From an uncultured bacterium (lineage in GTDB: Bacteria > Fidelibacterota > Marinisomatia > Marinisomatales > UBA1611): DNA of 64,000 nt. A program made the position numbers and the translations under genes. Positions 34,733-60,238 of this stretch are shown piece by piece. The DNA is taken from NCBI GenBank assembly GCA_964511215.1, contig CAZEER010000003.1:6457-70456 (forward strand), given 5' to 3'. How positions within the stretch are numbered: the stretch's first letter is position 1; every line of letters starts with the position of its first letter. The notes under the pieces are model-generated. The model saw only the letters and a list, made by a program, of their open reading frames with translations. It was not told the origin of the DNA and did no database searches.

Positions 34733-35664
34733 AATACTTTCCAGGCAGCACCCAATGCTGCCGTCCTTCTATCAGAAGAGAAATCAATAATTAAATCTGT
34801 ACAATTCATAAACATTTTCCCTAATCTGTTATTGTCATTTAATAGAAAATGGCCAAGTCTCTGGCCTATAACTATTTTTTCAATTGATTCATTATTTTTT
34901 TGAAAAAACTTAATTCGGTCATCTACTAGGAATGAAAATGCTTCTAATACATTTTCAACAATATCAAAAAATTGATTTGATCTAGATAGTTCAGACAGCG
35001 TTCTATATTTAGTGTTGTAAGTTAGATTGTACTTTTTGATTATACCTGATGGAGAGAGCCATGATTCTACAGAGTCACCAGATGGAAGAGTTAATTCCCA
35101 CGAACGTTTAGGACTAGAATTATGGTTAAAGTCAATCATTTCACCATTAAGAACTAATCCATCTGCTATTCCTGTTCCGCCACCAATATAGATACCATTA
35201 TTAATATTTTTCATTTTTCCTATAGTTGACTTCCACTCTCCCATAACACAGCAATCTGAATCATTATAAATAGTATTGACAGCATCTAGGCGATTTACCA
35301 TATTGATAATTCTTGGACCATTTGCTAATACTACGATATCATTTTTATTTTTTATTCCTGGAAAACATAATCCAGTTTGATAACCTTGACACTGAGATAA
35401 AGCTTGTTGAATTGTTTCTATAATGATATTCCCTTGAATGATCTCAGAATTTTTGATTGATATTTTTCCAATTTTATATTCATTTCGTTGTATATCTAAT
35501 GCTACTGGTAAAAAGTTTTTATCCCAGCTTGGATGATTAGAGTAAAGAAATTCTTGATAAATTTTACCTGGAGAGATGTTATTGGATTCAGGATCAAAAA
35601 TTGCTGATTGGATAAGTACTTTTGTGGCACCGCAGTCAACACCCACTAAAAGATCATTATTCAT
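34726..35664 (-). CDS. BadF/BadG/BcrA/BcrD-type ATPase, probable N-acetylglucosamine (amino-sugar) kinase
   Basis: The ASKHA phosphate-1 motif VGVDCGATKV lies at the N-terminus, with GGGTGIADG later. It sits between SpoIID and NagZ with overlapping stops and starts. Confidence 0.7.
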   Translation of the reverse strand: MNNDLLVGVDCGATKVLIQSAIFDPESNNISPGKIYQEFLYSNHPSWDKNFLPVALDIQRNEYKIGKISIKNSEIIQGNIIIETIQQALSQCQGYQTGLCFPGIKNKNDIVVLANGPRIINMVNRLDAVNTIYNDSDCCVMGEWKSTIGKMKNINNGIYIGGGTGIADGLVLNGEMIDFNHNSSPKRSWELTLPSGDSVESWLSPSGIIKKYNLTYNTKYRTLSELSRSNQFFDIVENVLEAFSFLVDDRIKFFQKNNESIEKIVIGQRLGHFLLNDNNRLGKMFMNCTDLIIDFSSDRRTAALGAAWKVLC

Positions 35665-36715: not shown

Positions 36716-36900
36716 ATATTGAAACTAATTTGAAAAATTCATATGTCTAATAAAAAGCGTATAGATTATAAAATTTTATAAACAATTTTACGTATCTTTT
36801 TATTTATTATTTTTTATTATTTAGTTGTATAAGTTTAGTTGAACAGATATATTTTTACTTAAGGTTGTTGATAATTATCCTAAAATATTATTATTGAATA

Positions 36901-39807: not shown

Positions 39808-39813
39808 TTTCTT

Positions 39814-41175: not shown

Positions 41176-41176
41176 A

Positions 41177-42475
41177 TTAATCATAAAGGAAGTATTTAGA
41201 AGACTTTTTAATAAATTTCTCTATGTCTTTTTTTTCCTTAGCAAGAAAATTAAACAGGTATTTTCCTGCTTCAATTTCATCAGATGGGGTTCCATTATCC
41301 AAATAGTTTGATAGGGATTCATTACCATAGAGTTTGTTAATTATGTTTGGGGTGAATTGAAATTTATTTTCGTAAAGGTTCTTTATCATAAAAAGGCTGT
41401 AAAGCCCCATTTCTAGAGATCTGTATTTATATTTATCTGTTACTTCAAAAGAGCTACCGTAACATATTTTATTTTCAAATTTTGGGTTTAGCGCTTTACC
41501 AGGTATGGATTCTGGGAAGAAATTAGTAAAGTCAATTTTAACTCCATTAAGACTCAGGTTTTGTAGCCTTTCAATTAGAATTTTAGTTATCCATGGTGCA
41601 CCGATTTGTTTAAATGGTTTTCTGGTTCCCCGTCCTTCACTGATATTTGTCCCTTCAATGAGACACATGCCTGGATAAATAATTGCAGTTTCTAGATCTG
41701 GGATATTTGGAGAAGGTGCAACCCATGGTAAGCCAGTATCATCAAAAAACATTGATCTTTTCCATCCATCCATTTTTACGATGGTTATTTCTTTTGGTGT
41801 TGATGATAGCCATTTTTCATTTATTGCCATATTTGTTAGTTCGCCAACGGTCATTCCATATCTGATCGGTATGGGATAATATCCTAAAAATGATTTGAAT
41901 GAAGTATCAAGTATAGGCCCTTCAAATATTTCTCCTCCAATAGGATTTGGCCTATCTAATACCATGAACTCAATTCCGAAATCTCCAGCTGCTTCCATGG
42001 CCATACCAAGAGTTGATATGTATGTGTAAAAACGAGCACCGATATCTTGGATATCATAAATTATCAGATCAATTTCTTTTAGCATTTCAATTGTTGGTCT
42101 TCTTGTTGTTCCATATAGTGAGATTATTTCTGGTCCAGATATATTATGATTATCATAGATGACTTTAGCTCCGGCGCTTGCTTCTCCATAAAAACCATGT
42201 TCAGGCGCAAATATTGTTTTTAAAAATATGTTAGGGTTGCTTTGAAAAAGTTGATAGTTTTTTTGATTATTTCTTGAGATGCCTGTTTGATTTGTGATGA
42301 GTCCAATTGTTTTTCCCTTAAGGTAGCTAGGATAGTCTTCTAACAATACATCTAAACCAGTTCTGACAATATTATTTTTATCAGGCTTAATTGGGCCAAG
42401 AGTTACAATGGAATATTCGGGTTTATGATATTTCATCCCTAGGAGACATAGGAATAATAGGATATTTAACTTCAT
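41177..42475 (-). CDS. namZ: DUF1343 family exo-beta-N-acetylmuramidase (NamZ-like)
   Basis: GLITNQTGI, FAPEHGFYG and DIQDIGARFYTYISTLG are signature DUF1343 blocks. Confidence 0.85.
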   Translation of the reverse strand: MKLNILLFLCLLGMKYHKPEYSIVTLGPIKPDKNNIVRTGLDVLLEDYPSYLKGKTIGLITNQTGISRNNQKNYQLFQSNPNIFLKTIFAPEHGFYGEASAGAKVIYDNHNISGPEIISLYGTTRRPTIEMLKEIDLIIYDIQDIGARFYTYISTLGMAMEAAGDFGIEFMVLDRPNPIGGEIFEGPILDTSFKSFLGYYPIPIRYGMTVGELTNMAINEKWLSSTPKEITIVKMDGWKRSMFFDDTGLPWVAPSPNIPDLETAIIYPGMCLIEGTNISEGRGTRKPFKQIGAPWITKILIERLQNLSLNGVKIDFTNFFPESIPGKALNPKFENKICYGSSFEVTDKYKYRSLEMGLYSLFMIKNLYENKFQFTPNIINKLYGNESLSNYLDNGTPSDEIEAGKYLFNFLAKEKKDIEKFIKKSSKYFLYD

Positions 42476-42692
42476 AAATTTAGTTTATTTGTATTATTTA
42501 CATGATAGTCTGTATAGCTAGACCCAATCCATATTGCTAATATAATAAGTTCAAAAATATTGATTGAAGAAAATTATGGTTTTAGTATAATTAAAGCAAA
42601 AATATATAAAAAACGTATTTTGCGATACTCTGGAAATATAGAATGAATTTTCTAAAATAATTATTAATTAATAACAAAATAGGAGTTTAATT

Positions 42693-44264
42693 ATTCATTG
42701 GATTGATAATTTAATTATTTTCCTTTTTTTATCAGGTCTCATTGGGTTTGGATGGGTTCAAGGACTGCATAATAAGACTACATCAGATTATTTTCTAGGA
42801 AATAAAAAACTTCCATGGGTTACAGTCATGTTATCAATTGTAGCCACGGAAACATCAGTACTAACTTTTATCAGTATTCCAGGTATTGCATATCGTGGGA
42901 ATTGGATTTTTATCCAGCTTGCCTTTGGCTATATCTTTGGAAGAATTTTGGTGAGCATTTTTCTTCTCCCAAAATATTTCTCGTCCGGGATTGTGTCCAT
43001 TTATGAGATATTAGGTGAAAAATTTGGTAAGAATATGCAGAAAATTGCATCAGGTGTATTCCTGACAACTCGCATTCTTGCAGATGGTATTAGATTTTTA
43101 GCGACAGCAGTTATAATTCAAGTTATTACTGGTTGGTCTTTGCCGGTTTCAGTATTACTTATTGGTATTATTACGTTAATATATTCAGCACAGGGTGGAA
43201 TAAAGACTATTATATGGGTGGATAGTATTCAATTTGTATTATACCTTGCTGGGGGGATCATCTCTATCTTATATATATTATATAACTCGGATGAAACTTT
43301 TCATAATATTTTTTTCAGTTTAAGTGATGCTGGAAAGATGAGGATTTTTGGCCTAAATGGTCATCCTCTTACAGAACCATATTTTCTTATAAGTGCTTTT
43401 GTTGGAGGTACGTTCTTATCTTTATCATCGCATGGTGCGGATTATATGATGGTGCAACGTGTACTTACGACAAAAGAACTAAGATCAGGTCAAAAAGCGA
43501 TGATAGGTAGTGGAATTTTTGTAATGATTCAGTTTGGGATTTTTCTTTTAGCAGGTTCACTAATATTCTATTATTTTGATGGTACCCCATTACAAAAAGA
43601 TAGGGAATTCACTTCGTTTATTGTGAACCATTTACCGATAGGATTGAGAGGGTTTTTGCTTGCAGGAATATTGTCAGCTGCCATGTCTACACTAAGTTCA
43701 TCTATTAATTCTCTTTCATCTTCAACCATAATTGACTGGTTTGGAGCACATTCTTCATTAAATCTATCAAGATTGGTTAGCCTGTTTTGGTCGATAATTT
43801 TGATTAGTATCGCACTCCTTTTTAATGAAAGTGATTCAGCCATAGTTATTGTAGGTCTGCAAATTGCATCATTTACCTATGGAGGTCTACTTGGTTTATT
43901 TTTATTGAGTAAGAGTAACAGAAAATTCCATTCAAGTAGTTTAATTATTGGATTAATTTCAAGTTTTTTAATTGTATTTTACTTGAAGCATCTGGGCCTA
44001 GCCTGGACTTGGTTTATAATGATTTCAGTCATGACGAATGTTTCAATGGCATTTTTAGCTGAAGCATTTATTAAACCAAGTGACACAAAGATGATTGCGT
44101 TACTGGTAATCATAATCAGTATTTCTTTACTTTATTCTTCTTTTTTAAAACCTATTATACAATCAACTCAAAGATTTTTTGATAATCATAATTCTAACAG
44201 ATTAATACAATCAGTCGCATATGATTTTTTGAATGGGAAAGAGAAAGAAGACAGATCTAATTAA
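42693..44264 (+). CDS. Sodium:solute symporter (second SSS paralogue); proposed non-canonical ATT start
   Basis: The track starts at 42828 (MLSIVATETS), but the frame is open from 42675. It encodes (I)HWIDNLIIFLFLSGLIGFGWVQGLHNKTTSDYFLGNKKLPWVTV, the obligatory SSS TM1 and DYFLGxRxxPW block. No ATG, GTG or TTG occurs in that stretch. AGGAG at 42681-42685 lies 7 nt before the ATT at 42693. Confidence 0.75.
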   Translation: MHWIDNLIIFLFLSGLIGFGWVQGLHNKTTSDYFLGNKKLPWVTVMLSIVATETSVLTFISIPGIAYRGNWIFIQLAFGYIFGRILVSIFLLPKYFSSGIVSIYEILGEKFGKNMQKIASGVFLTTRILADGIRFLATAVIIQVITGWSLPVSVLLIGIITLIYSAQGGIKTIIWVDSIQFVLYLAGGIISILYILYNSDETFHNIFFSLSDAGKMRIFGLNGHPLTEPYFLISAFVGGTFLSLSSHGADYMMVQRVLTTKELRSGQKAMIGSGIFVMIQFGIFLLAGSLIFYYFDGTPLQKDREFTSFIVNHLPIGLRGFLLAGILSAAMSTLSSSINSLSSSTIIDWFGAHSSLNLSRLVSLFWSIILISIALLFNESDSAIVIVGLQIASFTYGGLLGLFLLSKSNRKFHSSSLIIGLISSFLIVFYLKHLGLAWTWFIMISVMTNVSMAFLAEAFIKPSDTKMIALLVIIISISLLYSSFLKPIIQSTQRFFDNHNSNRLIQSVAYDFLNGKEKEDRSN

Positions 44265-44283
44265 AACTCCTTGGATTCTAGGG

Positions 44284-45429
44284 TTAAATTATCCTTTTTA
44301 CGAAAAGGAATGTCTCCAGCCTTTTTGGGGCAAAATTAACTAAATTTTTATCTAAAGAATTTTCTTTTACCATGCCCCCTTGATGGATAAACTCTTTTCC
44401 ACCAGTACTTATACCAACATGTGTTACTCTATTATTTTCCCCAAAAAAAAGTAAATCCCCAGGGCGAATATTTTCCCAATTTTTATCAGGGGTTATATCA
44501 ATTCCTTCTAATGCCTGTTGTCTAGCATCACGTGGCAATTGTATACCATTTGATTTGAATACTATTTGGGTAAACCCTGAGCAATCATTCCCTTTAGAAG
44601 AATTGCCACCCCATAAATAAGGCACTCCGGTCATTTTATAAGCGTCCCTAAGGATACTATCTGGGACTGCTAATTTCTCCGGTCTACTAATTATAGGTTT
44701 TAAAATATTTTTTGTAACATAACCAGATCTACCATCGGGGAGCAAAATAGATACCCAATCTTTATTTTTAATATTACCAATTAATATATTATTAAGTACA
44801 GCATCAGTAATAGGTTGGCTTGTATTATTAGGTAATGAAAATATAGTAGTTTGTAATGTGTTAATAGTGTAGTTAGCATTTTTTACCCAATTATTTTTTA
44901 AAACTGAGTCACATATAAACAATCCAGTTTCATTAATCCACCCCACATAATTATAGTGTGTTTGAGATAAATACCAACCAGTTTTGTAACGAAGCAACCT
45001 AATAATATTCCCCATTGTAGTCTGATCTACCATTTGACTAGAGTGACTTGGCTTTTCTCGCAAAGGTGTAACGCTTACATTAACAATTGCATAATTATTA
45101 TTGCCTAGTGTAGGGTCAGGTAGCATCATAAAATTATTAGTGAATTTTTTTGACCTAAACAGTGAGTCACTCATTTCCATCAATTTTGTAAAAGCAATAG
45201 CATTAGTGGTGGCACCTTCTATGACCCATTGATTATCTATTTTTTTTAGGCTTGGTGAAAAGACAGAGAGTGATTTGTCAGTAATATATTGTTTACTTAT
45301 TTCTGAGACCCTTCTATCAAAATCAGAAATAATTTTCTTTTTATCAGAACAATCAGATACTAAAAATAACAGGAATAAGTAAAACAAAAAGCTGAAGATT
45401 TTTTTCATTAATTTTTTTCTTCTAATCAT
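44284..45429 (-). CDS. NlpC/P60 (C40) cell-wall endopeptidase with N-terminal SH3b-like domains
   Basis: YLWGGNSSKGNDCSGFTQIVF (catalytic Cys) followed by HVGIS (His). It has a lipoprotein-like N-terminus; MKKIFSFLFYLFLLFLVSDC is a possible alternative start at 45408. Confidence 0.85.
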   Translation of the reverse strand: MIRRKKLMKKIFSFLFYLFLLFLVSDCSDKKKIISDFDRRVSEISKQYITDKSLSVFSPSLKKIDNQWVIEGATTNAIAFTKLMEMSDSLFRSKKFTNNFMMLPDPTLGNNNYAIVNVSVTPLREKPSHSSQMVDQTTMGNIIRLLRYKTGWYLSQTHYNYVGWINETGLFICDSVLKNNWVKNANYTINTLQTTIFSLPNNTSQPITDAVLNNILIGNIKNKDWVSILLPDGRSGYVTKNILKPIISRPEKLAVPDSILRDAYKMTGVPYLWGGNSSKGNDCSGFTQIVFKSNGIQLPRDARQQALEGIDITPDKNWENIRPGDLLFFGENNRVTHVGISTGGKEFIHQGGMVKENSLDKNLVNFAPKRLETFLFVKRII

Positions 45430-46858
45430 GAATAATATTTTGGACTATTTCATTTTGTATATGCTGATAAGGCTCAGAATCTCCAACAAAACCATTAATT
45501 AAGATAGAGAAAGCAACAGGTCCATATTTTGGTGAAAAAATATATCCTGATAAATTATTAACACCAGATAAACCGCCGGTTTTTGCTCTGATCATTGCTC
45601 CTTCTTTTACCAGCCTATTCTCAAGAGTTCCATTTTCCCATCCTCCTCCTGGTAGGACAGAAATAAAATCATCTCTATGTTTACTGCTATACATCTTAAT
45701 TAATAATGAGGTCAAGTGATCGGCACTTGTGAGATTATATCTTGATAGTCCTGAGCCATCTGCTAATCGTATCATGGATGTATCTATTCCAATAGAATCA
45801 GATAAGAATGATTTAACACGGTTTATACCATTCTGCCAATTCCCTTGACTTTGATTAGTAATACCTATTGTTTTAATAAATAGCTCTGCTTTTAGATTGT
45901 CACTCTCGTTCATTAAATCTGCAGTTGAAAAAATGATGGGATTTGAATTATGATACGCAAGAGTGTCGAAGTCTTTTTTTAATGTACCCTTAACCAAATT
46001 TTTTACTTTAACACCATAGTTGTTCAGAGACTCTCTGAAGATCGTGCCTGTGAATAAAGTAGGGTCATAGATATTCCGTCTGAGTGTATCACATTTTTTT
46101 TTATAAAATATTTCACCACTTATTTTAAAATGATTTGTTCTTGCGACCCAATCACGATCTATTTTTAGTTTTTCTAGTTCAATATTATTTGTAACAGTAA
46201 GGGAGTGGTTAGATAATGATATATATTCAGTATATGGGAAATAATTAATATTAGCAGGTTTTCCTGGAATATCTGGGGAAATATAAAAATCTATGCAATT
46301 ATCATTAACAGTTAGTGCTCCAACTGGAGCAGCATACCACCATGCTCCTTCATCCCACATCCATCCCTTACCAAAATATAATGAGTCCATAGAAGTTGCA
46401 TCTAAAAATAATGTGTCAACTGTTTTTAAAAATGTGGATGTTATCTTTGCAAGAGAATCTAATTGATCCACAGTGAGATCAGGGTCACCATGTCCCTGTA
46501 GTATTATATTGTTTTTATCTCGTAAGATATTTGTTGTAAACATATAATCCTTTCCTAAATAATCTAAAGCAGCTGCGCTGGTATACAACTTATTGTTACT
46601 CGCAGGGATTAATAACTTTTTACTATTCAATTCATATAATATTTTTCCGTTAGTCAATGAAATTATTTTTACACCTATTAGAAAATCTTGGTTAGAATCA
46701 ATGATTATTTGATTCAATTTTTTTTTTAAAGAAGAGACTCCTTGATTTGTTAATAAAGAGGGATGTGGAGTACAGGATAAAAGATAAAAAGTTGTTAAAA
46801 AACAAATAGTGTTAAATCTCATGAGAACCATCTTGTACTTTATTAAGAAATGACTCAA
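45422..46858 (-). CDS. dacB: D-alanyl-D-alanine carboxypeptidase/endopeptidase, PBP4 (S13) family
   Basis: PASNNKL (SxxK), DGSGLSRYN (SxN) and KTGGLSG (KTG) are present. The true start may be MRFNTICFLTTFYLLSC (46822), which gives a lipobox and a smaller overlap with the upstream gene. Confidence 0.85.
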   Translation of the reverse strand: MSHFLIKYKMVLMRFNTICFLTTFYLLSCTPHPSLLTNQGVSSLKKKLNQIIIDSNQDFLIGVKIISLTNGKILYELNSKKLLIPASNNKLYTSAAALDYLGKDYMFTTNILRDKNNIILQGHGDPDLTVDQLDSLAKITSTFLKTVDTLFLDATSMDSLYFGKGWMWDEGAWWYAAPVGALTVNDNCIDFYISPDIPGKPANINYFPYTEYISLSNHSLTVTNNIELEKLKIDRDWVARTNHFKISGEIFYKKKCDTLRRNIYDPTLFTGTIFRESLNNYGVKVKNLVKGTLKKDFDTLAYHNSNPIIFSTADLMNESDNLKAELFIKTIGITNQSQGNWQNGINRVKSFLSDSIGIDTSMIRLADGSGLSRYNLTSADHLTSLLIKMYSSKHRDDFISVLPGGGWENGTLENRLVKEGAMIRAKTGGLSGVNNLSGYIFSPKYGPVAFSILINGFVGDSEPYQHIQNEIVQNIIHD

Positions 46859-47480
46859 GTAATAACACGCTTAGAGATTGTGTCTTACTAAATTGTTTTT
46901 CACTTACCCCAATTCTTTGGGCAAATGTTTTTGAAGCTTCAATATGTGGTTGAAAACCCCAAATTGGAAGATGCTTGTGTACTATTGCCTCAATTTTCAC
47001 CATCGAACTTGTTGCAAATACATCAAAGTTCTCAGGACATTTAGTGACACCTTCTTGGTGAGAATAAATTAAATAATCCTCCTGCGTATTATTTAGCCGG
47101 TTATTTTCTAAAATTTTTATTCTTCTAATTCCTCTTTTTTTAGTAGTATTCCATAGATAATCGACTGTTCCTCCAAAAAGGTGTGCCAGAAATTGATGAC
47201 CAAAACAGATCCCAAGAATTGGGATTCTATTTTTAATGCCTATTTCTATTATCTCCTTGATATTATTCAGCCAATGAAAGGAATCGTGGACCGAAGCAGC
47301 ACTACCCATAAGAATTATACCGCAAGCATTGTTAATATGCTTTTTCATGGAATTCGGCGAATGTATTTTGGGTAAATGATAGGTAGTATTTATATTGCAG
47401 CGCAGTGAAATTTCATTGTAAGATTCTATTTCAGGAGTCTTTATTGCAGGGTCAATGACCATTAAGTTTTGAAAACTCAT
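46812..47480 (-). CDS. Class I glutamine amidotransferase-like protein (C26-type Cys-His-Glu hydrolase fold)
   Basis: GICFGHQ nucleophile elbow and the GFQPHIE His-Glu pair. At 222 aa it is stand-alone, with no synthase domain. Confidence 0.72.
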   Translation of the reverse strand: MSFQNLMVIDPAIKTPEIESYNEISLRCNINTTYHLPKIHSPNSMKKHINNACGIILMGSAASVHDSFHWLNNIKEIIEIGIKNRIPILGICFGHQFLAHLFGGTVDYLWNTTKKRGIRRIKILENNRLNNTQEDYLIYSHQEGVTKCPENFDVFATSSMVKIEAIVHKHLPIWGFQPHIEASKTFAQRIGVSEKQFSKTQSLSVLLLESFLNKVQDGSHEI

Positions 47481-47612
47481 TAACTATTATAGTAATAGTT
47501 TTTTAAAAATGACAATTAGAAATATTTTTTTGTTCAAAGTATCCTTTATGAATAAAATTGTGGAATTTGCATCTGATTGAATGTGATATTATATATAAAT
47601 TAGGGTATTTAA

Positions 47613-48458
47613 TTGATCAAATACTTCGTGCATTTTAAAATTTTTGCTATTCTATTATTTGCTTTTGGTTCTTGTGCTGACCGTGGACCTTATGATTGGA
47701 TTGAGTCTCTCCCAGCTCCTTGGACCTTGTCAAATTATCAACTAGATTCATATCTACCACAATTCCATAAAAAGTACCCTGATTATTATGATCGGTTAAT
47801 AGCTCTTAACCTATGGCGTGTAGGTACTCCTTATGGATTATTTTGTCTTGGTGAAGAGCAGGGTATAGATCTCGACCCAATCATTAGAATTGATAGTTCA
47901 GATTGTACGGTACATGTTTTAACGACTATTGCGTTGGCAGAAAGTCAAACATGGCAAGGTGCAAGAGATGCGATGATTGACATCCACTATAAGCCGGATC
48001 TCAATGGTATTAAAAAACCTACTTATAAATCTCGCTGGCATTTTACATCTGATCGTTTATTAAATAATCCCCGCACAGTTGATATAACCTCGATTATTGC
48101 ATCACCAGAAGACGTTGATACAATCAATATTATATTAAATAAAAAAATCGATGGTTCTCAGTTTTTGAAACTTGGTTGGACATCAAAACTATCAACTTAC
48201 TTTATCCCTATCCAAAATATAGGGGAGCATTTATTATCACAACTCCCTGTTATTTGTGGGATTGCTTTTGTTAAAAAAAACTATTTTAAAAATGGTATTG
48301 TTATTGCTCATGAAGGATATGTTATTAATAGAAGGAATCTAATCCATGCTTCATCAGTAGAAAACAAGACAGTCAATGTTAACTTATTGTCATATATTGG
48401 GAATGTTAGTAAACCTCGTTTTGATGGAGTGATGTTTTACGAGATCAGGAAAATTTGA
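47613..48458 (+). CDS. DUF1460 (AmiA-like NlpC/P60-fold N-acetylmuramoyl-L-alanine amidase) lipoprotein
   Basis: TTG start, lipobox FGSC, and DSSDCTVHVLTTIALAE (a candidate catalytic Cys context, as in DUF1460). The family assignment is from memory of the DUF1460 pattern, so confidence is moderate. Confidence 0.6.
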   Translation: MIKYFVHFKIFAILLFAFGSCADRGPYDWIESLPAPWTLSNYQLDSYLPQFHKKYPDYYDRLIALNLWRVGTPYGLFCLGEEQGIDLDPIIRIDSSDCTVHVLTTIALAESQTWQGARDAMIDIHYKPDLNGIKKPTYKSRWHFTSDRLLNNPRTVDITSIIASPEDVDTINIILNKKIDGSQFLKLGWTSKLSTYFIPIQNIGEHLLSQLPVICGIAFVKKNYFKNGIVIAHEGYVINRRNLIHASSVENKTVNVNLLSYIGNVSKPRFDGVMFYEIRKI

Positions 48459-48461
48459 AAA

Positions 48462-50804
48462 ATGGTTAATAAAAATCTATCCCAAGTAGAATCTTATTTC
48501 ACAGATAATAATAAGATATTAAAACAACTTACAAATATTCCATATCTAGTTGTTGATAATTTTCCAGATTTAGGTTTAATTACATCTCTTCGATTTCTAG
48601 AATGGATCTTAGAAAATCCCCATGGTGTTATTAGTCTTCCGACTGGTAAAACTCCAGAATATTTTATTAAATGGACTCACTATTTTCTAAATAATTGGGA
48701 TGTTGATAATGTAAAATCCATTCGACTGAAATATGGTCTAGACTGTAACAAAAGACCAGACTTATCAAAATTACAATTTGTCCAAATTGATGAGTTTTAT
48801 CCTCTTAACCCTGCGCAGCATAACAGTTTTTATAATTATGTAAGCAAATATTATCTTGAAGGGTTTGGGATTTCCCCTAATAAATCATTATTAATTAATT
48901 CAGATTCTATAAAACTTTATAAAGATAAACATTGGAGTTCAATTTTCCCAGATGGAATCATCGATCTGAATTTGCGTTACAGGGATGCCAAAACTGACGC
49001 TGAAAAAATGCAAAAAGAATCGATCTATATTATAGATCAATGGTGTAATCAATATGAAGAAAAAATAAGGAATATGGGAGGGATTGGGTTTTTTCTAGGC
49101 GGTATTGGTCCAGATGGGCACATTGCTTTTAATATCAGAGGTTCAGATCATAATTCAACAACTCGGTTGATGAAAACGAATTTTGAGACACAGGCCGCAG
49201 CTGCCGTGGATTTGGGAGGGATTGAAATTAGTAAAAATCGTTTGGTTATAACTATTGGGCTGGGAACAATAACTTATAATGAAAATGCTACGGTTATTAT
49301 TATTGCTGCAGGAGAAGCTAAATCAGCTATAGTCAAGGAATCACTTGAATCTCAACAAGATATAAAATATCCTGCAACTGTTCTTCAAAAACTTGAAAAT
49401 AGCAGATTTTATATAACTATAGGTGCATCAAAAATGCTTAAGGATAGTCAAGATCATTATTGGAAAAAAAATCCTTGGAATTCGGAAAAGAAACAGAGAG
49501 CATTATTAAAGCTTTCTAAGAGAAAGAACATTTTTGGTAAAAAACTTCAGTTGCATGATCTACAAAAAGATGAAATTTTTAAAAATATGAATGGGATAAA
49601 TGAAAAAACAGTTGATGAAATTATCCAAAATATTGATAAAAAAGTCCAACAAGGAATCAAGATTGAAAAAGATGAAACATATTATCACACGGGTCCCCAT
49701 CATGATGATATTATGCTTGGGATGATGCCTCACATTATACATTTGATTAGGGAACCAAGTAATAGGCATATTTTTGCAAATATGACTTCTGGATTTACAT
49801 CGGTAACTAATAGTTTTTTAAATAAAGTGATTAAAACTACTTTGGATTTTCTTGAAAAAGGGAAAATTCAGATGATAGACTATCTAGATTTTTTTTCAGA
49901 TGGTTATAAGTTTAAATGGGATAAGGACGTATACCATTACCTTGACAGAATTGCCGATAATGATTTAAGTGGCCAATTGAGAGGTTTATCACATAGGGTT
50001 GTACGCTCAATAGTAAAAATTTATAATGTCCAAAATAAAAACCAATTAATCGAGCAATTAACAAGAGTGGTTAATGAATTAAATGATTATTACGATGGAG
50101 AAAAAAATTCACCAGCAATCCAACGGTTAAAAGGAATGATCCGAGAATTTGAAGAAGAGTTAGTCTGGGCAAACTATGGTGTACGTGTAAAAGATGTACA
50201 TCATCTAAGGCTTGGATTTTATAAGGGTGATATTTTTACAGAACAGCCTCAGCAGAAGAGAGATGTAACACCCATACTAGAACAATTAAGAGAATTTAAA
50301 CCAACTGTTATTTCACTTGCACTTGATCCTGAAGGAAGTGGCCCTGATACACATTACAAGGTTTTGCAGGCTATTGCAGAAGCAGTTCGAAGATGGAACA
50401 AAGATTCTGATTTATCAAATTTAAGAATTTGGGGCTATAGAAACGTTTGGTATAGGTTTGATATGTCAGAGGCAGATTTAATTATTCCTGTGACACTTAA
50501 TTCTATGGCAATTATGAATTCTACTTTTATGAATTGTTATTTGAGTCAAAAAGATGCTTCATTCCCCAGCTATGAGTATGATGGCCCTTTTTCTAAACTC
50601 ACTCAAAAAATATGGGTTGAACAGCACAGAGATTTACAACTGATTTTTGGCCGAGATTATTGGTATCAAAATAAAAATCCACATTTAAGAGCAGTGCATG
50701 GAGCATTATATTTAAAACAATTTGGTGTAGAAGATTTTTTGAAGTTAGCTAGGCGAATTGAGGATTCCACAGAAGGATCAAATATTCTAAAAGAATCATT
50801 TTAA
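48462..50804 (+). CDS. nagB: Long-form glucosamine-6-phosphate deaminase fused to a PIG-L/LmbE-like deacetylase domain
   Basis: The N-terminal half carries LPTGKTPEYF, QIDEFYPL and GIGPDGHIAFN (NagB/6PGL fold). The C-terminal half carries YYHTGPHHDDIMLG, resembling the PIG-L (A/P)HPDDxxxG zinc motif. Confidence 0.82.
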   Translation: MVNKNLSQVESYFTDNNKILKQLTNIPYLVVDNFPDLGLITSLRFLEWILENPHGVISLPTGKTPEYFIKWTHYFLNNWDVDNVKSIRLKYGLDCNKRPDLSKLQFVQIDEFYPLNPAQHNSFYNYVSKYYLEGFGISPNKSLLINSDSIKLYKDKHWSSIFPDGIIDLNLRYRDAKTDAEKMQKESIYIIDQWCNQYEEKIRNMGGIGFFLGGIGPDGHIAFNIRGSDHNSTTRLMKTNFETQAAAAVDLGGIEISKNRLVITIGLGTITYNENATVIIIAAGEAKSAIVKESLESQQDIKYPATVLQKLENSRFYITIGASKMLKDSQDHYWKKNPWNSEKKQRALLKLSKRKNIFGKKLQLHDLQKDEIFKNMNGINEKTVDEIIQNIDKKVQQGIKIEKDETYYHTGPHHDDIMLGMMPHIIHLIREPSNRHIFANMTSGFTSVTNSFLNKVIKTTLDFLEKGKIQMIDYLDFFSDGYKFKWDKDVYHYLDRIADNDLSGQLRGLSHRVVRSIVKIYNVQNKNQLIEQLTRVVNELNDYYDGEKNSPAIQRLKGMIREFEEELVWANYGVRVKDVHHLRLGFYKGDIFTEQPQQKRDVTPILEQLREFKPTVISLALDPEGSGPDTHYKVLQAIAEAVRRWNKDSDLSNLRIWGYRNVWYRFDMSEADLIIPVTLNSMAIMNSTFMNCYLSQKDASFPSYEYDGPFSKLTQKIWVEQHRDLQLIFGRDYWYQNKNPHLRAVHGALYLKQFGVEDFLKLARRIEDSTEGSNILKESF

Positions 50805-52299: not shown

Positions 52300-52794
52300 A
52301 TGAAATATTTATTATTTTTTACTATGTTTAATATGTCTTTATTCGGAACGCATCTGCAAGTGGGTGAACAAGCACCTAATTTTTCTTTAAATGATCAAAA
52401 TGGTAAAAAACACCAATTAGAAGATTACAAAGGTAAAAATTTAGTAATTTATTTTTTCCCAAAAGCTTTCACTCCTGGCTGAACAAAACAAGCGTGCGGG
52501 TTACGTGATGAGTCAATGACATTTAAAGATTTAAATATTTCTATATTGGGTATTAGCTATGATTCTCAAGATCAATTAAAATCCTTTAAAGAAAAATATA
52601 ATCTACCATTTGATTTTTTATCGGATTCAGAAAAACTTATGGGTAGTGATTATGGTGTAAATAGTTTTCACTTTTTTCCACAGCGTAAGACCTTTCTCAT
52701 TGATGAAAAAGGGATTTTAATACATATTTTTAATAATGTCGATTTAAATAGGCATCCTAAAGATATTTTAAAAATATTTAATCACCATGATTAA
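52300..52794 (+). CDS. bcp: Bcp/PrxQ-type peroxiredoxin with in-frame TGA (52480-52482) at the peroxidatic Cys position; predicted selenocysteine
   Basis: Track ORFs 52300..52482 and 52516..52794 are in the same frame. The joined sequence is ...LVIYFFPKAFTPG[TGA]TKQACGLRDESMTFKDLNISILGISYDS..., and the Bcp consensus is FYPKDFTPGCTxExC. The resolving Cys five residues downstream is retained. An N-terminal signal peptide is present. Confidence 0.8.
52493..52505 (+). promoter_or_regulatory. Candidate bSECIS-like hairpin downstream of the peroxiredoxin UGA
   Basis: CGUG-CGGGU-UACG: a 4-bp stem including one G-U pair, with a GGU-containing loop, starting 10 nt after the UGA. The stem is short, so confidence is low. 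Confidence 0.3.
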
Positions 52795-52804
52795 GGAGTA
52801 ATAT

Positions 52805-53029
52805 ATGAAAGTATCTATTGAATATTGCGCAGTTTGAAACTACTTACCGAAAGCTTCCAGTCTGGAGGCTATGTTAAGCGCAACTTTTTCTGATATTGAA
52901 GTAAAACTTGTATCTAGTGGCGGGGGTGTTTTTGAAATAATGCTAGATGACCAATTAATATTTTCAAAAAAATCCTTAAATCGCTTTCCAGAACATGGAG
53001 AAATTGTAGATTTAATAAAAGCAGGATGA
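52805..53029 (+). CDS. SelW/Rdx-family thioredoxin-like protein with in-frame TGA (52835-52837) in a CxxU motif; predicted selenoprotein
   Basis: Absent from the ORF track. My translation is MKVSIEYCAV[TGA]NYLPKASSLEAMLSATFSDIEVKLVSSGGGVFEIMLDDQLIFSKKSLNRFPEHGEIVDLIKAG. The Rdx family begins with (V/I)xIEYCxxC/U, has GGxFEV in the middle and a RFP(E/D) tail. Confidence 0.8.
52853..52869 (+). promoter_or_regulatory. Candidate bSECIS hairpin downstream of the SelW-like UGA
   Basis: GCUUCC-AGUCU-GGAGGC: a 6-bp stem with one G-U pair and a 5-nt loop containing GU, starting 15 nt after the UGA. Confidence 0.45.
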
Positions 53030-53036: not shown

Positions 53037-53792
53037 TTGATTTCTGAAATTGATCATAGTGGGAAAATTTATACTGTAAATCTTGAATCTGGGATTGATT
53101 TATCAATCCAAAATAATTTTTCGGGTGATGCCCCAACCTTTTTTAATTCGAATCCTCCTACTATAAGACCCGCACAATCAAAGAATTTTATTGGAGATAT
53201 CGGTCAGGGGGGTAGCTGTAATGTGCCCATCACAATGTTAAATATTCATTGTACAGGGACTCACACTGAATCTATTGGTCATATCAATGACTCTGGTGTT
53301 AGAGTAGTAGATGTTTGTCCCAAAGGTTTGATGACAGCTTTATTAATTACTGTAATACCACGGAAAATAAATGAGACTAATGATTCTTATCATTCTAAAT
53401 TATCTAATGAATTAGTCATAACTAGGGAAAGTATACAAAAACAATTAACAGCGAATGTGGAAGGACTTATATTAAGAACCCTACCCAATAATCAATCTAA
53501 AAAATCAAGAGATTATGATGCAGAACCAGCTCCATTTTTTACTAATGATGCTATTGATTATATACATGATGCTGGTATAAAACACCTACTTGTAGATATC
53601 CCATCAGTGGACAAGGCTGATGATGGAGGAATGTTGGAAAATCATAGAAGATTTTTTAAAAATGGAGCAACAATTTCAGAATTATTATTTATCCCTGATA
53701 TTACCCCGGATGGATTTGGTTTTTTACAAATCCAAATCCCAAATTGGGGATTAGATGTTGTCCCAAGTCGTCCGATATTTTATCCTGTGTAA
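53037..53792 (+). CDS. Putative cyclase family protein (kynurenine formamidase-like fold)
   Basis: The HCTGTHTESIGH block resembles the cyclase-family H.GTH.D.P.H metal motif. The ORF uses a TTG start 8 nt after the SelW-like stop. Confidence 0.65.
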   Translation: MISEIDHSGKIYTVNLESGIDLSIQNNFSGDAPTFFNSNPPTIRPAQSKNFIGDIGQGGSCNVPITMLNIHCTGTHTESIGHINDSGVRVVDVCPKGLMTALLITVIPRKINETNDSYHSKLSNELVITRESIQKQLTANVEGLILRTLPNNQSKKSRDYDAEPAPFFTNDAIDYIHDAGIKHLLVDIPSVDKADDGGMLENHRRFFKNGATISELLFIPDITPDGFGFLQIQIPNWGLDVVPSRPIFYPV

Positions 53793-55172: not shown

Positions 55173-55202
55173 AAAAGCTTCTTCTTCAAGGGGCTTTTTT
55201 TT
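55173..55202 (+). terminator. Rho-independent terminator after the PAS-MenA gene
   Basis: AAAAGCUUCUU-CUUC-AAGGGGCUUUU: an 11-bp stem with two G-U pairs, running into a T tract. Confidence 0.55.
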
Positions 55203-55276: not shown

Positions 55277-55429
55277 ATGAAAAATATATTTAAAAAACAA
55301 AATCAAGAAAAAGTATCTGAGGCTGTAATTCGTGCCGTTTCCAGATTAAATAAATATGAAGATCAGAAAGTATCTCATTCAATAGTATGGGATGGTAAAT
55401 CGATTAATTATATATCGCTCACCTCATGA
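55277..55429 (+). CDS. Unlisted 50-aa ORF overlapping the lexA start (ATGA)
   Basis: My translation is MKNIFKKQNQEKVSEAVIRAVSRLNKYEDQKVSHSIVWDGKSINYISLTS. The stop TGA overlaps the lexA ATG. No family was recognised, and it could be non-coding leader. Confidence 0.3.
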   Translation: MKNIFKKQNQEKVSEAVIRAVSRLNKYEDQKVSHSIVWDGKSINYISLTS

Positions 55430-56046
55430 ACAAACATCTGTCACCAAAACTGAAAAAGTTTCTAGATTTTATTAAGCAATTCACGCTAATTCATAGCCAT
55501 CCTCCATCTTACGAGGAAATTATGTCAAATCTAGGATTTGGATCGTTGGGGACAATCAATTGGTATGTAAAAACCCTAGAAGAACAGGGTTACTTATCTC
55601 GTGTAAAAGGTCCCAACGGCAAGCGAGCGCTCATCTTAAGTCAAGAAGAGCATGCTACAACTACAACATCTTGTTTGCCGCTACTGGGACTCATTGCCGC
55701 CGGAGAACCTATTGAAGCATTAGAAAATCCTGAAATGGTTGATGTTCCGCCATCTCTGTTGCATCCGGATAATTATATTTTACAGGTAAGAGGAGATTCT
55801 ATGATTGATGAACAGATTCATGATGGAGATTATATTGTTGCGAGGAAAACACAGACTGCCCGTTCGGGGCAGATTATTGTAGCTCTTATTAATGGAGAGG
55901 CAACTCTAAAGTGTTATATTAAAAAAAATGATGGGGTAGAGCTTCATCCCCGTAACCCAGATTATCCGATTATAAAAATTAATCCACAAGATAATTTTTA
56001 CATTAATGGTGTACTACTCTATTCTTTTCGAAATTATTTGAATTAA
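55426..56046 (+). CDS. lexA: LexA repressor (S24 peptidase)
   Basis: N-terminal winged HTH (PSYEEIMSNLGFGSLGTINWYVKTLEEQGYL), cleavage-site region LIAAGEP, catalytic Ser in VRGDSM, and Lys in ATLKCY. Confidence 0.9.
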   Translation: MNKHLSPKLKKFLDFIKQFTLIHSHPPSYEEIMSNLGFGSLGTINWYVKTLEEQGYLSRVKGPNGKRALILSQEEHATTTTSCLPLLGLIAAGEPIEALENPEMVDVPPSLLHPDNYILQVRGDSMIDEQIHDGDYIVARKTQTARSGQIIVALINGEATLKCYIKKNDGVELHPRNPDYPIIKINPQDNFYINGVLLYSFRNYLN

Positions 56047-56057
56047 GTAAATCTTTT

Positions 56058-57230
56058 ATGACTAGCCAAGACGTTTTGCATATGCGTCTTAATAATATGG
56101 AAATTCAGGCGGAGCGGATTATAGACCCAAGTCTTAAAGCACGTCCGGTTGCTATTATTTCTTCCCATAATTCTAATGGAAGTATTATATCTTTATCTTC
56201 TGAAGCAAAAGAAGAAGGATTACACCGAGGCATGAAAGTTTCATTGGTACGGAAAATGAGTCACAGTACCCAATTATTGCCTTACAATCATTCTCTATAT
56301 GATCGGATTAATTGGTATATATATCGCGTTGTATCTTCTTATACACCTGTTGTTGAACCACATAGATTGAATGAATTTTTTTTGGATATGGGTGGTATGG
56401 ATTCAATTTATGGTAATATAAAAAATGCAGGTCTTGATATTATAAAACGTATAAGAGATGAAATTAGTATTTATGGGACAATTGGTATTAGTAAGAATAA
56501 ATTAGTAAGCCAGATTATAACTGCCGTTATTCCAGATGAAATTCATAAAATTGATAGCGGATATGAATCTCAATTCCTTGAACCTTTAAACCCCAAACTA
56601 CTACCTGTAGTACGTATAAAATCAATTCAATGCATTCTTAAATTTTTATTAATCAAACAAATATCTCATATTCAAATTATGGCAGAGCAATCAGAAGAGT
56701 TTGATATATTATTTGGGATATATGCAAAAGTACTTAGTAAAGAAGCTCAAGGTTATGACACATCACAAGTAAAATCGTATCGTTCACGCAATCACATTTT
56801 AGAACAGAAAATATTACCAGAAGATACAAATGACCAAATGATATTGGATGGAATAGTAAAAGATTTATCAGAACGAGTTTCTTTTAAACTAAGAAAACGT
56901 AAACAGATTGCAGATCGTGTTCAATTAGAGATTCATTATAGCGATGGATATAATATATGCTATAATGGAAAATTTGCAGATATTGATGATATGTCTGTAT
57001 TTATGACTTGTAAAAAACTATTTAAAAATGCGAACCAAAGGCGTAATAGAATACGTTCAATATTGATAGATGTATCAGAATTTCGTCCGTATGCTGATCA
57101 AAAAAATTTATTTTTTACAAAAGAAGGTCATAGTATGAAAGTATCTCGGGCAATAGATAAAATTCGTGCAAAATATGGATTTGACAGTATTCAAACTGCT
57201 AATGTACTTCGAGTGTTAAATCATCAGTAA
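56058..57230 (+). CDS. imuB: ImuB-like Y-family polymerase homologue (catalytic acidic residues apparently replaced)
   Basis: It has a Y-family fold pattern (ARPVAIISS...). Where DinB has LHIDMDAFYASVE, this protein has LHMRLNNMEIQAE, so both Asp are lost, as in ImuB. It sits between lexA and dnaE2. Confidence 0.78.
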   Translation: MTSQDVLHMRLNNMEIQAERIIDPSLKARPVAIISSHNSNGSIISLSSEAKEEGLHRGMKVSLVRKMSHSTQLLPYNHSLYDRINWYIYRVVSSYTPVVEPHRLNEFFLDMGGMDSIYGNIKNAGLDIIKRIRDEISIYGTIGISKNKLVSQIITAVIPDEIHKIDSGYESQFLEPLNPKLLPVVRIKSIQCILKFLLIKQISHIQIMAEQSEEFDILFGIYAKVLSKEAQGYDTSQVKSYRSRNHILEQKILPEDTNDQMILDGIVKDLSERVSFKLRKRKQIADRVQLEIHYSDGYNICYNGKFADIDDMSVFMTCKKLFKNANQRRNRIRSILIDVSEFRPYADQKNLFFTKEGHSMKVSRAIDKIRAKYGFDSIQTANVLRVLNHQ

Positions 57231-60200
57231 TGTTCATTCATTTAAATATTCATTCTATTTATTCTGCAATGCGAGGACTTTTATCTTTACCTGATTTGAT
57301 GAATGCTGCGAAATCGTATGATATGGATACATTAGCTCTTACAGATGTTAATGGTCTGTTTGGTTTTATTCATTTTGTTCAGCATTGTCATGAAGCAGGT
57401 GTCAAAGCTATTGCGGGAGTTAACTTGATGACTATTACAGATGAAGTAATCATATTAGTAGAGAATCAGTATGGTTATGAAAATCTTTGTCGGATTATAT
57501 CCAGTATCCATGATAATTCAGATCAAGATATTTCTGATATTTTAAAAAAATATTCATCAGGCTTATTTATGTTGGCTCATAATAGATCAACGTTAAAAAA
57601 ACTACATTGTTTTATTCCAGATACGCATTTATTTGTAGAGCTGAGACCAGGGCTTTCAGAATTAGAAGCAGAACAATTATCAAAAGAATTAAAATTAGAG
57701 ATTATTGCAACAGGAGATGTGTATTTTAGATCATATGTAGACCATCGATCCCATAAAATTTTACGTGCTATAAAAAATAATACTACAATTGAAAATTGGG
57801 ATATAACAGATTGTAAATCGGAACAGAGTTGGTTCCGCAGTGAAAAGGATATGGCCGTACTTTTCCCAAATAGCTTAGATGCAATCAACAATAGTCGCTA
57901 TTTAGCGGATCGTTGTAAAACAGATTGGTCTTTTGTGAATACTGTTTTTCCAGGTCTATCACTTAAAAATACCTATCATGCTAATAAAAAATTAAAAAAT
58001 AAAGTCTATGCAGGTGCAAAAATCCGTTATGGTGCAATTAATGATTTAATACAATCTCGTATTGAATATGAATTAGAACTGATTACCCAAAAAGGATTTG
58101 CACCTTATTTTCTTATCGTAGAAGACATTATAATACAAACTCAATCGACTATTGGAAGAGGATCGGCTGCTGCATCGATTGTTAGTTATTGTCTTTTTAT
58201 TACTCAAGTAGATCCTATAAAGTACAATCTGAAATTCGAGCGCTTTATTCATACGGAGCGTGAGGGCATGCCTGATATTGATATTGATTTTCCATGGGAT
58301 GAGCGAGATAATATTTTGGATTATGTATTTACTAAATATGGAAAAGACCGAACAGCAATGGTCGCCAGTCAGGTTTTTTTAAAATCTCGTTCTGCAATTC
58401 GGGAAGTTGGAAAAGTGTTCGGCCTCTCTAATGAAGAAATAAAAACAATTACGAAACGTATAGGGTGGTATAATTCTAATCAAGACCTTGAATCTCAAGT
58501 ACAAACAGATCCACGTTTTAGTAATATAGGTTTAGATGAAACATTAATAGAAGTATTAAGAGAAAGTAAAAAAATTATAGGTGTATTACGTCATGTATCT
58601 GTGCATCCTGGAGGAATAGTTATCGTTCCTGATGAGATTAGAAAATATGTACCAGTACTCATGGCACCTAAAGGAGTTCAGATTGTAGAATGGGAAAAAG
58701 ATCAAGTGGAGGATTCAGGTTTATTAAAAATTGACCTTTTAGGGAATAGGAGTTTAGGAGTGGTGCGAGATAGTATACGTTATATTAATCTCAATTATGG
58801 TGAAAATGTGGTTCGTAGTAAATATTTAAATTATCATCAGATTCAACCATTGGATGATCCAAAAACAGAGCATCTCATGAAAGAAGGGAAGACAATGGGT
58901 GTCTTTTATATTGAAAGTCCTGCAACTCGACAGCTTTTGGCAAAAGCGAAGATGGTGGATTTTGAGCATGTGGTAATTTATTCATCTATTATTCGTCCTG
59001 CAGCCAATCGATATACGAATCTGATGCTATCTAGAATACATGGTGCAAAATGGAATTCAATGCATCAGGATTTAGATTTTTTAAATGAAAGCTATGGAAT
59101 TATGGTCTATGAAGAACAGGTTTCGATGGCAGTTATGACGATGGCGGGATTAGGTTATTCAGATGCAGAGTTGCTCAGAAAAACTATGAGCAGAAATTCC
59201 ATGCAGTATCTTGTATCACATTGGGAAAAACAATTCTCTCGTGGCGCACTTCGTAGAGGATATTCATCTAGTTTAATTAATAATGTATGGGATATGATCA
59301 AATCGTTTATAGGATACTCTTTTTGTAAACCACATTCAGCATCGTATGCAATGCTTTCTTTTACCTGCGCATATCTTAAAGCTCATTTCCCTGCCGAATT
59401 TTTATCGTCTGTGATTTCTAACCAAGGTGGTTTCTATTCATCTTATGCGTATATGAGTGAAGCACGTAGGTTGGGTATTCAGATTGTATGTCCAGATATT
59501 AACAACAGTTATTTTGAATGGAGAGGATCAAAAAATAAGATTCAAATGGGATTTATGAGTATTAAAGGATTGCAAAAAAAAACAATAGATTTAATTTTAG
59601 ATGAGCGTAAAGCAGGTTATTTTGATTCACTAAATGATTTTTTATTTCGAGTGGATTTGAATATGACCGATGCAATGGTTTTGACCAATGCAAGTTGTTT
59701 TAACATCATCGCATCAGAATTAAGTCACCAGGAAATAGCATATAAAATTGCTGGTTTTTATTTACAAAGTGGCTCTCGCAGACTATTCAATAGATCTCAT
59801 ATACAATCAAAATTAACAATTGATGAAAAATACAAATTGGAGTTGGATATATTTGGTTATCCGGTATCTATTCATCCCATTACCAAATACAGGCCTATAC
59901 TAAGTTCACGTATTCGATATGCTAGAGATATTCCAAAATATTTTGGCCAATCTATCTACCTTACAGGAATTTATATTACACGTAAAGAATCCATCACTCA
60001 TCAGTCAGAACCTATGCAATTCCTAACTTTAGAAGATGAAACTGATTTATATGAATGTGTTTTATTTCCTGAAGTGTTTAAAAAATTTGGTGATTTATTT
60101 TACTGGGAAACATTATTTATCATCAGAGGAACGGTAGAAAAATCTTTTGGGGTATATAGTATTATTATTGAAAAAATGGGGAGTCTACAACAGTGGGTGC

Positions 60201-60238
60201 ATCGATTAGGTCAAAGTAATTCTTTTAAAATTGTATAA
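57230..60238 (+). CDS. dnaE2: Error-prone DNA polymerase III alpha homologue DnaE2 (ImuC)
   Basis: PHP domain HLNIHSIYSAMRG, the palm-domain DIDIDF aspartates, and GYSFCKPHSASYA. At about 1000 aa its length and context with lexA and imuB match DnaE2. The start overlaps the imuB stop. Confidence 0.9.
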   Translation: MFIHLNIHSIYSAMRGLLSLPDLMNAAKSYDMDTLALTDVNGLFGFIHFVQHCHEAGVKAIAGVNLMTITDEVIILVENQYGYENLCRIISSIHDNSDQDISDILKKYSSGLFMLAHNRSTLKKLHCFIPDTHLFVELRPGLSELEAEQLSKELKLEIIATGDVYFRSYVDHRSHKILRAIKNNTTIENWDITDCKSEQSWFRSEKDMAVLFPNSLDAINNSRYLADRCKTDWSFVNTVFPGLSLKNTYHANKKLKNKVYAGAKIRYGAINDLIQSRIEYELELITQKGFAPYFLIVEDIIIQTQSTIGRGSAAASIVSYCLFITQVDPIKYNLKFERFIHTEREGMPDIDIDFPWDERDNILDYVFTKYGKDRTAMVASQVFLKSRSAIREVGKVFGLSNEEIKTITKRIGWYNSNQDLESQVQTDPRFSNIGLDETLIEVLRESKKIIGVLRHVSVHPGGIVIVPDEIRKYVPVLMAPKGVQIVEWEKDQVEDSGLLKIDLLGNRSLGVVRDSIRYINLNYGENVVRSKYLNYHQIQPLDDPKTEHLMKEGKTMGVFYIESPATRQLLAKAKMVDFEHVVIYSSIIRPAANRYTNLMLSRIHGAKWNSMHQDLDFLNESYGIMVYEEQVSMAVMTMAGLGYSDAELLRKTMSRNSMQYLVSHWEKQFSRGALRRGYSSSLINNVWDMIKSFIGYSFCKPHSASYAMLSFTCAYLKAHFPAEFLSSVISNQGGFYSSYAYMSEARRLGIQIVCPDINNSYFEWRGSKNKIQMGFMSIKGLQKKTIDLILDERKAGYFDSLNDFLFRVDLNMTDAMVLTNASCFNIIASELSHQEIAYKIAGFYLQSGSRRLFNRSHIQSKLTIDEKYKLELDIFGYPVSIHPITKYRPILSSRIRYARDIPKYFGQSIYLTGIYITRKESITHQSEPMQFLTLEDETDLYECVLFPEVFKKFGDLFYWETLFIIRGTVEKSFGVYSIIIEKMGSLQQWVHRLGQSNSFKIV

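Follow-up and report, generated by a model that had tools for sequence, protein, structure and literature searches.

A SelW-like gene with a conserved in-frame UGA and a SECIS-type hairpin, very probably decoded as a selenoprotein gene, beside a peroxiredoxin gene of likely Marinimicrobia origin

Selenoproteins of the SelW-like family, characterized by a CxxU motif, were described from the Sargasso Sea by Zhang, Fomenko and Gladyshev in 2005, in a work that regarded the function of the bacterial protein as unclear (PMC1088965); and in the 2022 prokaryotic catalogue the family appears only with CxxU, the UxxU form being there confined to Prx-like proteins and a mercuric reductase (PMC9312934). 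SelW-like/Rdx is known as the most abundant selenoprotein family of the ocean, and in the GOS data, too, it ranks first, with 427 selenocysteine (Sec) versus 56 Cys forms; the Prx (TxxU) family is also abundant, with 253 sequences; and ten reads bear neighbouring Prx and SelW selenoprotein genes, which reads stem from closely related organisms (PMC2398784). The preliminary description of the present locus had named both families as known from marine metagenomes, in agreement with these reports (PMC1088965, PMC2398784). Cultured Sec-decoders with annotated SelW-like selenoproteins of this type include Desulfotalea psychrophila, Geobacter sulfurreducens, and Symbiobacterium thermophilum (PMC1794560). 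As to the RNA signal, the constraints published for the bacterial SECIS (bSECIS) are a loop of 3-9 nt, a stem of 4-16 bp, a G in the first two loop positions, a distance of 16-37 nt from the UGA, and a minimum free energy of -7.5 kcal/mol or lower (PMC13188914).

The gene considered here shares with the published bacterial SelW-like selenoproteins the Pfam family PF10262, the CxxU motif, the marine habitat, and a SECIS element inside the ORF whose small apical loop contains a G; we found no essential difference, and since the family and the Prx/SelW arrangement are both already published, the gene is to be taken as another member. What is new here is the assignment to the Marinimicrobia, which we consider probable, together with the quantified analysis of hairpin covariation and synonymous sites and the extent of the mis-annotation in the databases. 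The gene lies in a window of 64 kb, by which term we mean the whole stretch of DNA analysed, and the features of the locus are the following:

52300..52794, plus strand: BCP/PrxQ-type peroxiredoxin selenoprotein gene, with the Sec TGA at 52480-52482 in the peroxidatic position
52493..52510, plus strand: candidate Prx SECIS hairpin, with a bulged stem, its G-rich loop lying some 18 nt past the UGA
52793..52798, plus strand: Shine-Dalgarno-like AAGGAG, 6 nt 5' of the SelW-like ATG and overlapping the Prx TAA stop
52805..53029, plus strand: SelW-like (Rdx family) selenoprotein gene, of 74 codons including that for Sec, followed by a TGA stop at 53027-53029
52826..52837, plus strand: C-A-V-U redox motif, with Cys8 (TGC) at 52826-52828 and Sec11 (TGA) at 52835-52837
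52852..52870, plus strand: bacterial SECIS-type hairpin within the coding sequence, with an 8-bp stem (52852-52859/52863-52870) and a GUC loop (52860-52862)
53037..53792, plus strand: putative cyclase gene (PF04199, by Pfam), 7 nt after the SelW-like stop

From the ATG at 52805 the frame runs through MKVSIEYCAV, an in-frame TGA as codon 11 (52835-52837), NYLPKASSLEAMLSATFSDIEVKLVSSGGGVFEIMLDDQLIFSKKSLNRFPEHGEIVDLIKAG, and the terminal TGA at 53027-53029, so that the read-through product has 74 residues (MKVSIEYCAV-U-NYLPKASSLE...DLIKAG). This reading coincides in coordinates and translation with the preliminary description, which had proposed a read-through protein of 74 residues with the TGA as codon 11 in a CxxU motif; that description erred, nevertheless, in stating that no plus-strand ORF was listed, since the list does contain an ORF (52871-53029) that opens at an internal ATG and comprises the C-terminal 52 codons, and public gene callers give the identical 52-codon ORF (P0030). 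Motifs of the GGAG type are found at the equivalent position upstream of the SelW-like ATG in many of the relatives. We consider it very probable that 52805-53029 is a Sec-decoded SelW-like gene so far unannotated as such.

Membership in the Rdx/SelW family had been claimed beforehand, with an HMM search of the read-through translation suggested as the check, and every line of evidence that we obtained agrees with it. With Cys in place of the TGA, the read-through matched the Pfam Rdx profile (PF10262) at 78 bits (E 6e-22; cut-off 22.6), which match spans residues 2-72 of the product and profile positions 1-73 of 74; the truncated 52-residue ORF reached only 47 bits (E 2e-12) and covered profile positions 23-73 only, so that the 22 N-terminal residues across the TGA contribute about 30 bits, and a chance match is far out of the question. 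A sequence search of the PDB returned the bacterial SelW-related structures 2FA8, 3DEX, 2OBK, 2OKA, 2OJL, and 2P0G along with MIEN1, the C-A-V-[U] of the query being aligned with the C-T-Q-C of 2FA8 and 3DEX. The AlphaFold model, built with 30 homologues, had a mean pLDDT of 93 and a predicted topology b1-a1-b2-b3-b4-a2 (E2-8, H14-27, E32-38, E43-47, E50-54, H66-75), in which model the C8-A-V-U11 motif falls directly after strand 1 (2-8) and before helix 1; and superposition of the predicted model by Foldseek gave a TM of 0.90 with an rmsd of 1.0 A for 2FA8, and a TM of 0.71 for mouse SelW (2NPB). By this modelling the product is a thioredoxin-like protein of the SelW/Rdx family.

The Cys-containing bacterial structures as a group (2FA8, i.e. 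Atu0228, 2P0G, 2OBK, 2OKA, 2OJL, and 3DEX) resemble the window protein in fold (TM 0.86-0.91, rmsd about 1 A) and in where the redox motif lies, but have CxxC instead of CxxU, are 26-35% identical, and have chains of 103-108 residues, about 30 longer than the 74 found here. Mammalian selenoprotein W (2NPB) and MIEN1 (2LJK) likewise have the thioredoxin-like b1-a1-b2-b3-b4-a2 arrangement with a CxxU or CxxC after strand 1, though at a greater remove (TM 0.71-0.78). The eukaryotic SECIS resides in the 3' UTR and makes use of SBP2 and eEFSec (summarized in PMC13188914), whereas the element of the window gene is inside the ORF, just past the UGA.

To compare the locus with its relatives we took one genome per species, in which manner 393 relatives were obtained, and examined the best 80 loci. 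In all 80 of these best loci the TGA stood at exactly codon 11, and this over at least nine phyla and a range of 31-73% GC: the best 80 include Marinimicrobia/Neomarinimicrobiota, Desulfobulbales, SAR324, Gemmatimonadota, Planctomycetota, KSB1, Eisenbacteria, Thermoanaerobaculia, Symbiobacteriaceae, and others. Relatives of the window gene occur in lineages having cultured Sec-decoders. The flanks of the TGA were kept across the same 80 loci, with IEYCxx upstream and NYxPxA downstream, the conservation after the TGA having been one of the points on which the preliminary description had made its case depend. Among the best 150 representatives (50% identity) of the wider family, 75 had CxxW (TGA), 26—more distant, at roughly 35-48% identity—had a genuine CxxC, and about 46 were N-terminally truncated or otherwise without the motif. 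The comparison of Sec with Cys forms that had been suggested at the outset accordingly gave TGA in all of the best 80 loci and Cys in those 26 distant representatives, which, like the PDB relatives, bear out the earlier placement of the UGA at the second position of a redox motif with Cys in distant homologues.

Two marine metagenome contigs (L099:268-492 and L100:58-279; proteins P0150 and P0146) carry divergent SelW-like genes with a TGA at both motif positions, the motifs reading IEY-U-GM-U-NY and ILY-U-GM-U-NY; these codons imply a UxxU form, in which a diselenide would be possible.

The hairpin that follows the UGA has a computed fold energy of -10.6 kcal/mol, its loop starting 22 nt after the UGA, and satisfies every one of the published bSECIS constraints. 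The hairpin drawn earlier with 6 bp and an AGUCU loop (52853-52869) is the same element as the 8-bp stem with the GUC loop, and its placement at the expected bSECIS position held with respect to spacing, constraints, and covariation alike. Among the 81 aligned sequences 62 satisfied all the bSECIS criteria, and in all 81 the loop began with a G at equal spacing. With the E. coli fdhF-type and consensus bSECIS the element shares a stem-loop just after the UGA, an apical loop that is small and opens with G-U, and the 16-37 nt spacing; relative to E. coli fdhF, nevertheless, its sequence is unrelated and no bulged U can be assigned, and its binding by SelB is putative.

Covariation was analysed in a gapless alignment of 63 columns. 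Standard pairs made up 87% of the cells, as against 25-51% when the 3' arm was slid by 1-3 columns, and changes on both sides were present in 5 of the 8 pairs, as in pair 33-45 (CG 33, UA 23, UG 9, AU 3, GC 3) and pair 34-44 (UA 43, GC 12, UG 12). The covariation score was 0.345, compared with 0.02-0.16 for the shifted registers, and none of 500 column shuffles reached that value; RNAalifold, for its part, independently found the upper five pairs. In the single-sequence shuffle test on the 61-nt region the result was unremarkable (z = -0.87), for which reason it is the comparison of relatives that supports the hairpin, and Rfam at gathering thresholds gave no matches over the whole window. 

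Because the hairpin lies beneath a conserved peptide, A-S-S-L-E, the constraint on the RNA had to be separated from that on the protein, which separation we approached by two tests. First, in 41 distinct Marinimicrobia-type genes the synonymous sites were frozen, the two Ser codons of the stem and loop being TCC in 38 of 41 and AGT in 38 of 38, respectively, whereas conserved Ser codons elsewhere in the SelW-like gene use TCA, TCT, AGT, and AGC freely. Second, where an Ala codon pairs with a Glu codon through their third bases, the pair was C:G in 10, U:A in 19, U:G in 6, and C:A in 1, which association has a Fisher p of 2.7e-4, the covariation statistics being uncorrected for phylogeny. Across phyla, moreover, the paired amino acids change together—Ser-UCC...Glu-GAR, Ser-UCC...Gly-GGG, Ala-GCC...Ala-GCG—in such a way that the base pair stays intact. 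The RNA structure of the hairpin is under selection, and the conservation in relatives that had been put forward as a check was found, with compensatory changes. The passage from Ser...Glu to Ala...Ala together with the changes in the stem offers a clean example of an RNA constraint acting on a protein.

Among the alternatives to Sec decoding, the one that survives best, though we judge it very improbable, is that the UGA is read, but not as Sec: either the codon would be reassigned to Trp or Gly by an altered code, or Cys or Trp would be inserted independently of SelB by a suppressor or near-cognate tRNA. Of the 120 closest database proteins 119 do have a W at the TGA position and none a Cys, the remaining entry being the truncated 52-residue ORF; but the DNA of eight of the contigs encoding W has TGA at that codon, so that these seemingly full-length entries are table-4 translations of a conserved TGA, and in the nearest of them (P0001), which is the window gene itself, the terminal TGA is also rendered as W ('...KAGWL'). 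In the window, TGA terminates 10 of the 45 long ORFs and is absent from the interior of genes as long as 1526 codons, from which usage the standard code applies, tables 4 and 25 being thus ruled out. Against any non-Sec reading stand, in addition, the persistence of the TGA over the range of base composition and phyla given above, relatives of cultured Sec-decoders included; the alignment of the position with a catalytic Cys, in which place Trp or Gly would abolish the motif; and the covarying hairpin, with its SelB-type G-U loop and its fixed spacing, for which simple suppression would provide no role.

The same alternative draws some support from the search for the Sec machinery. Pfam revealed no SelA, SelB, or SelD among the approximately 50 ORFs of the window; ARAGORN found no tRNA-Sec in the 64-kb window plus 44 loci; tblastn with E. 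coli SelA, SelB, and SelD (NC_000913) against the window and the relatives' loci (about 1.4 Mb) gave no matches; and in the 10 kb beyond the left end of the window there was likewise no selA, selB, selD, or tRNA-Sec, the one GTPase there being of the BipA type and not SelB, which search space as a whole—window, flank, and loci—is a small part of any genome. For Sec machinery in this lineage the sole support is a 2016 survey that lists SelD in three SAR406 single-cell genomes, classed there as 'orphan SelD', that is, lacking the other known selenium-trait and selenoprotein genes (PMC5029168), and the literature on selenoproteins in Marinimicrobia, Marinisomatota, or SAR406 yielded nothing past that listing. 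We observed, for our part, that Sec-SelW-like genes are widespread in Marinimicrobia MAGs and SAGs (L013-L052, L057), in which Sec-Prx genes are often present as well. Such gene contents indicate, at the level of sequence, that SAR406/Marinimicrobia would use selenocysteine, and the 'orphan SelD' label may only reflect the incompleteness of the genomes and the overlooking of UGA genes.

Still less probable, in our estimation, is that the TGA is a genuine stop, in which circumstance the product would be the 52-residue ORF from the ATG at 52871, or else the gene would be a decaying pseudogene. Gene callers annotate exactly that ORF, which by itself scores with Rdx at the 47 bits cited above, and a GGAGG occurs 3 nt upstream of its ATG; the GGAGG, however, is the 3' arm of the conserved hairpin and is too near the ATG, and the ATG itself is not conserved, the relatives having E-A-E-L-K where the window has E-A-M-L-S. 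Furthermore, the ten codons before the TGA are conserved as protein across phyla, with IEYC invariant and third positions varying; the truncated product would, according to the model, be deprived of strand 1 and of the whole redox motif; and the identical sequence recurs in four independent marine metagenome scaffolds. The possibility that the TGA is a Cys codon wrongly sequenced or assembled, in favour of which there is only the single-base distance of TGA from TGC or TGT, is effectively refuted by the identity of the locus in those four independent assemblies and by the TGA in 80 of the 80 best divergent relatives and in many metagenome contigs.

Sec decoding being thus the reading that we retain, the database copies of the gene are wrong in essentially every case: either they are cut to the C-terminal 52 residues or they bear a Trp at the Sec position, the Trp calls having arisen from the use of table 4 on short, AT-rich contigs. 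An abundant marine gene is consequently missed in functional and trace-element surveys based on such calls.

The preliminary description had also placed the SelW-like gene 10 nt after a Sec-peroxiredoxin gene, an adjacency that we found as described, the Prx stop TAA (52792-52794) preceding the SelW-like ATG by 10 nt. The Prx motif, FTPG-U-TKQA-C, with Sec as the peroxidatic residue and the resolving Cys at +5, shows the atypical 2-Cys layout; the read-through matched Pfam AhpC-TSA at 128 bits, and the best solved relatives are of the BCP type (3DRN, E 4e-30). Its TGA was present in 28 of 28 aligned Marinimicrobia-type loci, and in 26 of the 28 the interval between the Prx stop and the SelW-like start was -4 to +19 nt. 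The position of the candidate Prx hairpin is kept, 86% of the cells being paired versus 24-62% in shifted registers; within the narrow clade compared, no compensatory changes were detectable, as a consequence of which the support for this hairpin as a SECIS is moderate and such a role is only plausible. In the databases the Prx appears with 156-162 residues on short contigs and is split into 60 and 92 residues on long ones.

With the 'Prx (TxxU)' family of the GOS and Sargasso data and with BCP/PrxQ the window Prx has in common the AhpC-TSA domain, the peroxidatic T-P-G-U, and the Cys at +5; but it differs from typical cytosolic BCPs in bearing a hydrophobic N-terminal extension (52300-52350; MKYLLFFTMFNMSLFG in the window). 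The extension is conserved, the relatives having MKKILxIILLKFSLFG and similar sequences, with a Lys/Arg start, 10-12 hydrophobic residues, and LFG, which composition suggests a signal peptide or membrane anchor; either one would be unusual for a BCP-type peroxiredoxin. The SelW-like protein, in contrast, starts directly with strand 1, without any N-terminal extension.

The linkage of the two genes was conserved in the Marinimicrobia-type loci, Prx being found directly upstream by tblastn in about 33 of 41, and the positions of the SIS/CBS (divergent), cyclase-family, PAS-UbiA, and LexA genes were also conserved; among the examined loci of other phyla no synteny of the Prx/SelW neighbourhood was seen. 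The cyclase gene, at about +203 nt from the UGA, retains that position in roughly 28 Marinimicrobia-type loci. No terminator-like site was found between the SelW-like and cyclase genes, the strongest such site lying at 55173-55198 (11-bp stem), and the cyclase gene, judging from this arrangement, is probably in the same transcription unit as the SelW-like gene; Prx and the SelW-like gene, too, are apparently co-transcribed. In a second Marinimicrobia sub-clade (L028-L030, L032, L033, L040, L041, L045, L057) lexA comes straight after the SelW-like gene, about 425 nt past the UGA, with neither the Prx nor the cyclase gene.

The nearest genome relatives of the window are Marinimicrobia MAGs and single-cell genomes: the neighbouring proteins are up to about 87% identical to their window counterparts (PAS-UbiA), the locus most similar overall (L014) has 68-85% identity, and the window encodes T9SS sorting domains, as would accord with the FCB group. 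On these grounds the host most likely belongs to the Marinimicrobia (SAR406).

With regard to the mechanism, canonical bacterial Sec insertion has the best support, and we propose that translation would begin at the ATG at 52805 behind the AAGGAG ribosome-binding site and that at the UGA at 52835 the ribosome would not stop, but that the hairpin at 52852-52870, through its G-U apical loop, would recruit SelB carrying Sec-tRNA(Sec), with the consequent insertion of selenocysteine at that UGA. In the resulting protein C8-x-x-U11 would cycle between the selenol/thiol and the selenylsulfide forms, as in a small thiol-selenol oxidoreductase. We infer both the SelB-dependent insertion and the redox chemistry by analogy with known systems, and the redox function of the product would follow from what is known of the family.

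The two UGA genes had previously been interpreted as a small redox module, of which proposal the conserved and apparently co-transcribed pair stands, whereas the conserved hydrophobic N-terminus of the Prx, absent from the SelW-like protein, argues against the two products being direct partners. We have downgraded a direct Prx-SelW partnership for that reason, and the two genes may simply be co-regulated. A bolder scenario, which we put forward tentatively and hold to be rather unlikely, would have SAR406 as both a Sec decoder and the source of the Prx/SelW pairs in the ocean, and the operon—possibly including the cyclase—as a dedicated two-selenoprotein relay for peroxide detoxification; if that were true, bacterial SelW-like proteins would acquire their first defined physiological partner.

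The Marinimicrobia (SAR406) are among the most abundant lineages of the dark ocean, and the use of Sec by that group bears on the selenium demand there as well as on the published puzzle of the 'orphan SelD'. The significance is otherwise modest, the understanding of Sec decoding and of the SelW family being unchanged.

Some further observations concern the rest of the window. The lexA gene, located 2.4 kb downstream, heads a LexA/ImuB-like (IMS)/DnaE2-like cassette (55426-60238), a set of genes typical of SOS mutagenesis. Two same-frame ORF pairs on the plus strand are each split by a single TGA, the one at 47613-50804 (AmiA-like, 281 residues, followed by 780 residues) and the other at 36901-41175 (GH3/beta-lactamase, 968 residues, followed by GH18, 453 residues); as in each pair an ATG for the second ORF stands only a few bases away, both pairs are probably ordinary adjacent genes. 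Finally, the region 33476-48458 is a dense cluster of genes for cell-wall recycling and peptidoglycan scavenging, containing a SpoIID-like protein, two GH3 enzymes (NagZ-like, one of them fused to a beta-lactamase domain), a GH18 with a T9SS tail, a NamZ exo-muramidase, two SSF transporters, an NlpC/P60 protein, an S13 D-Ala-D-Ala carboxypeptidase, a GATase/C26 peptidase, and an AmiA-like amidase.
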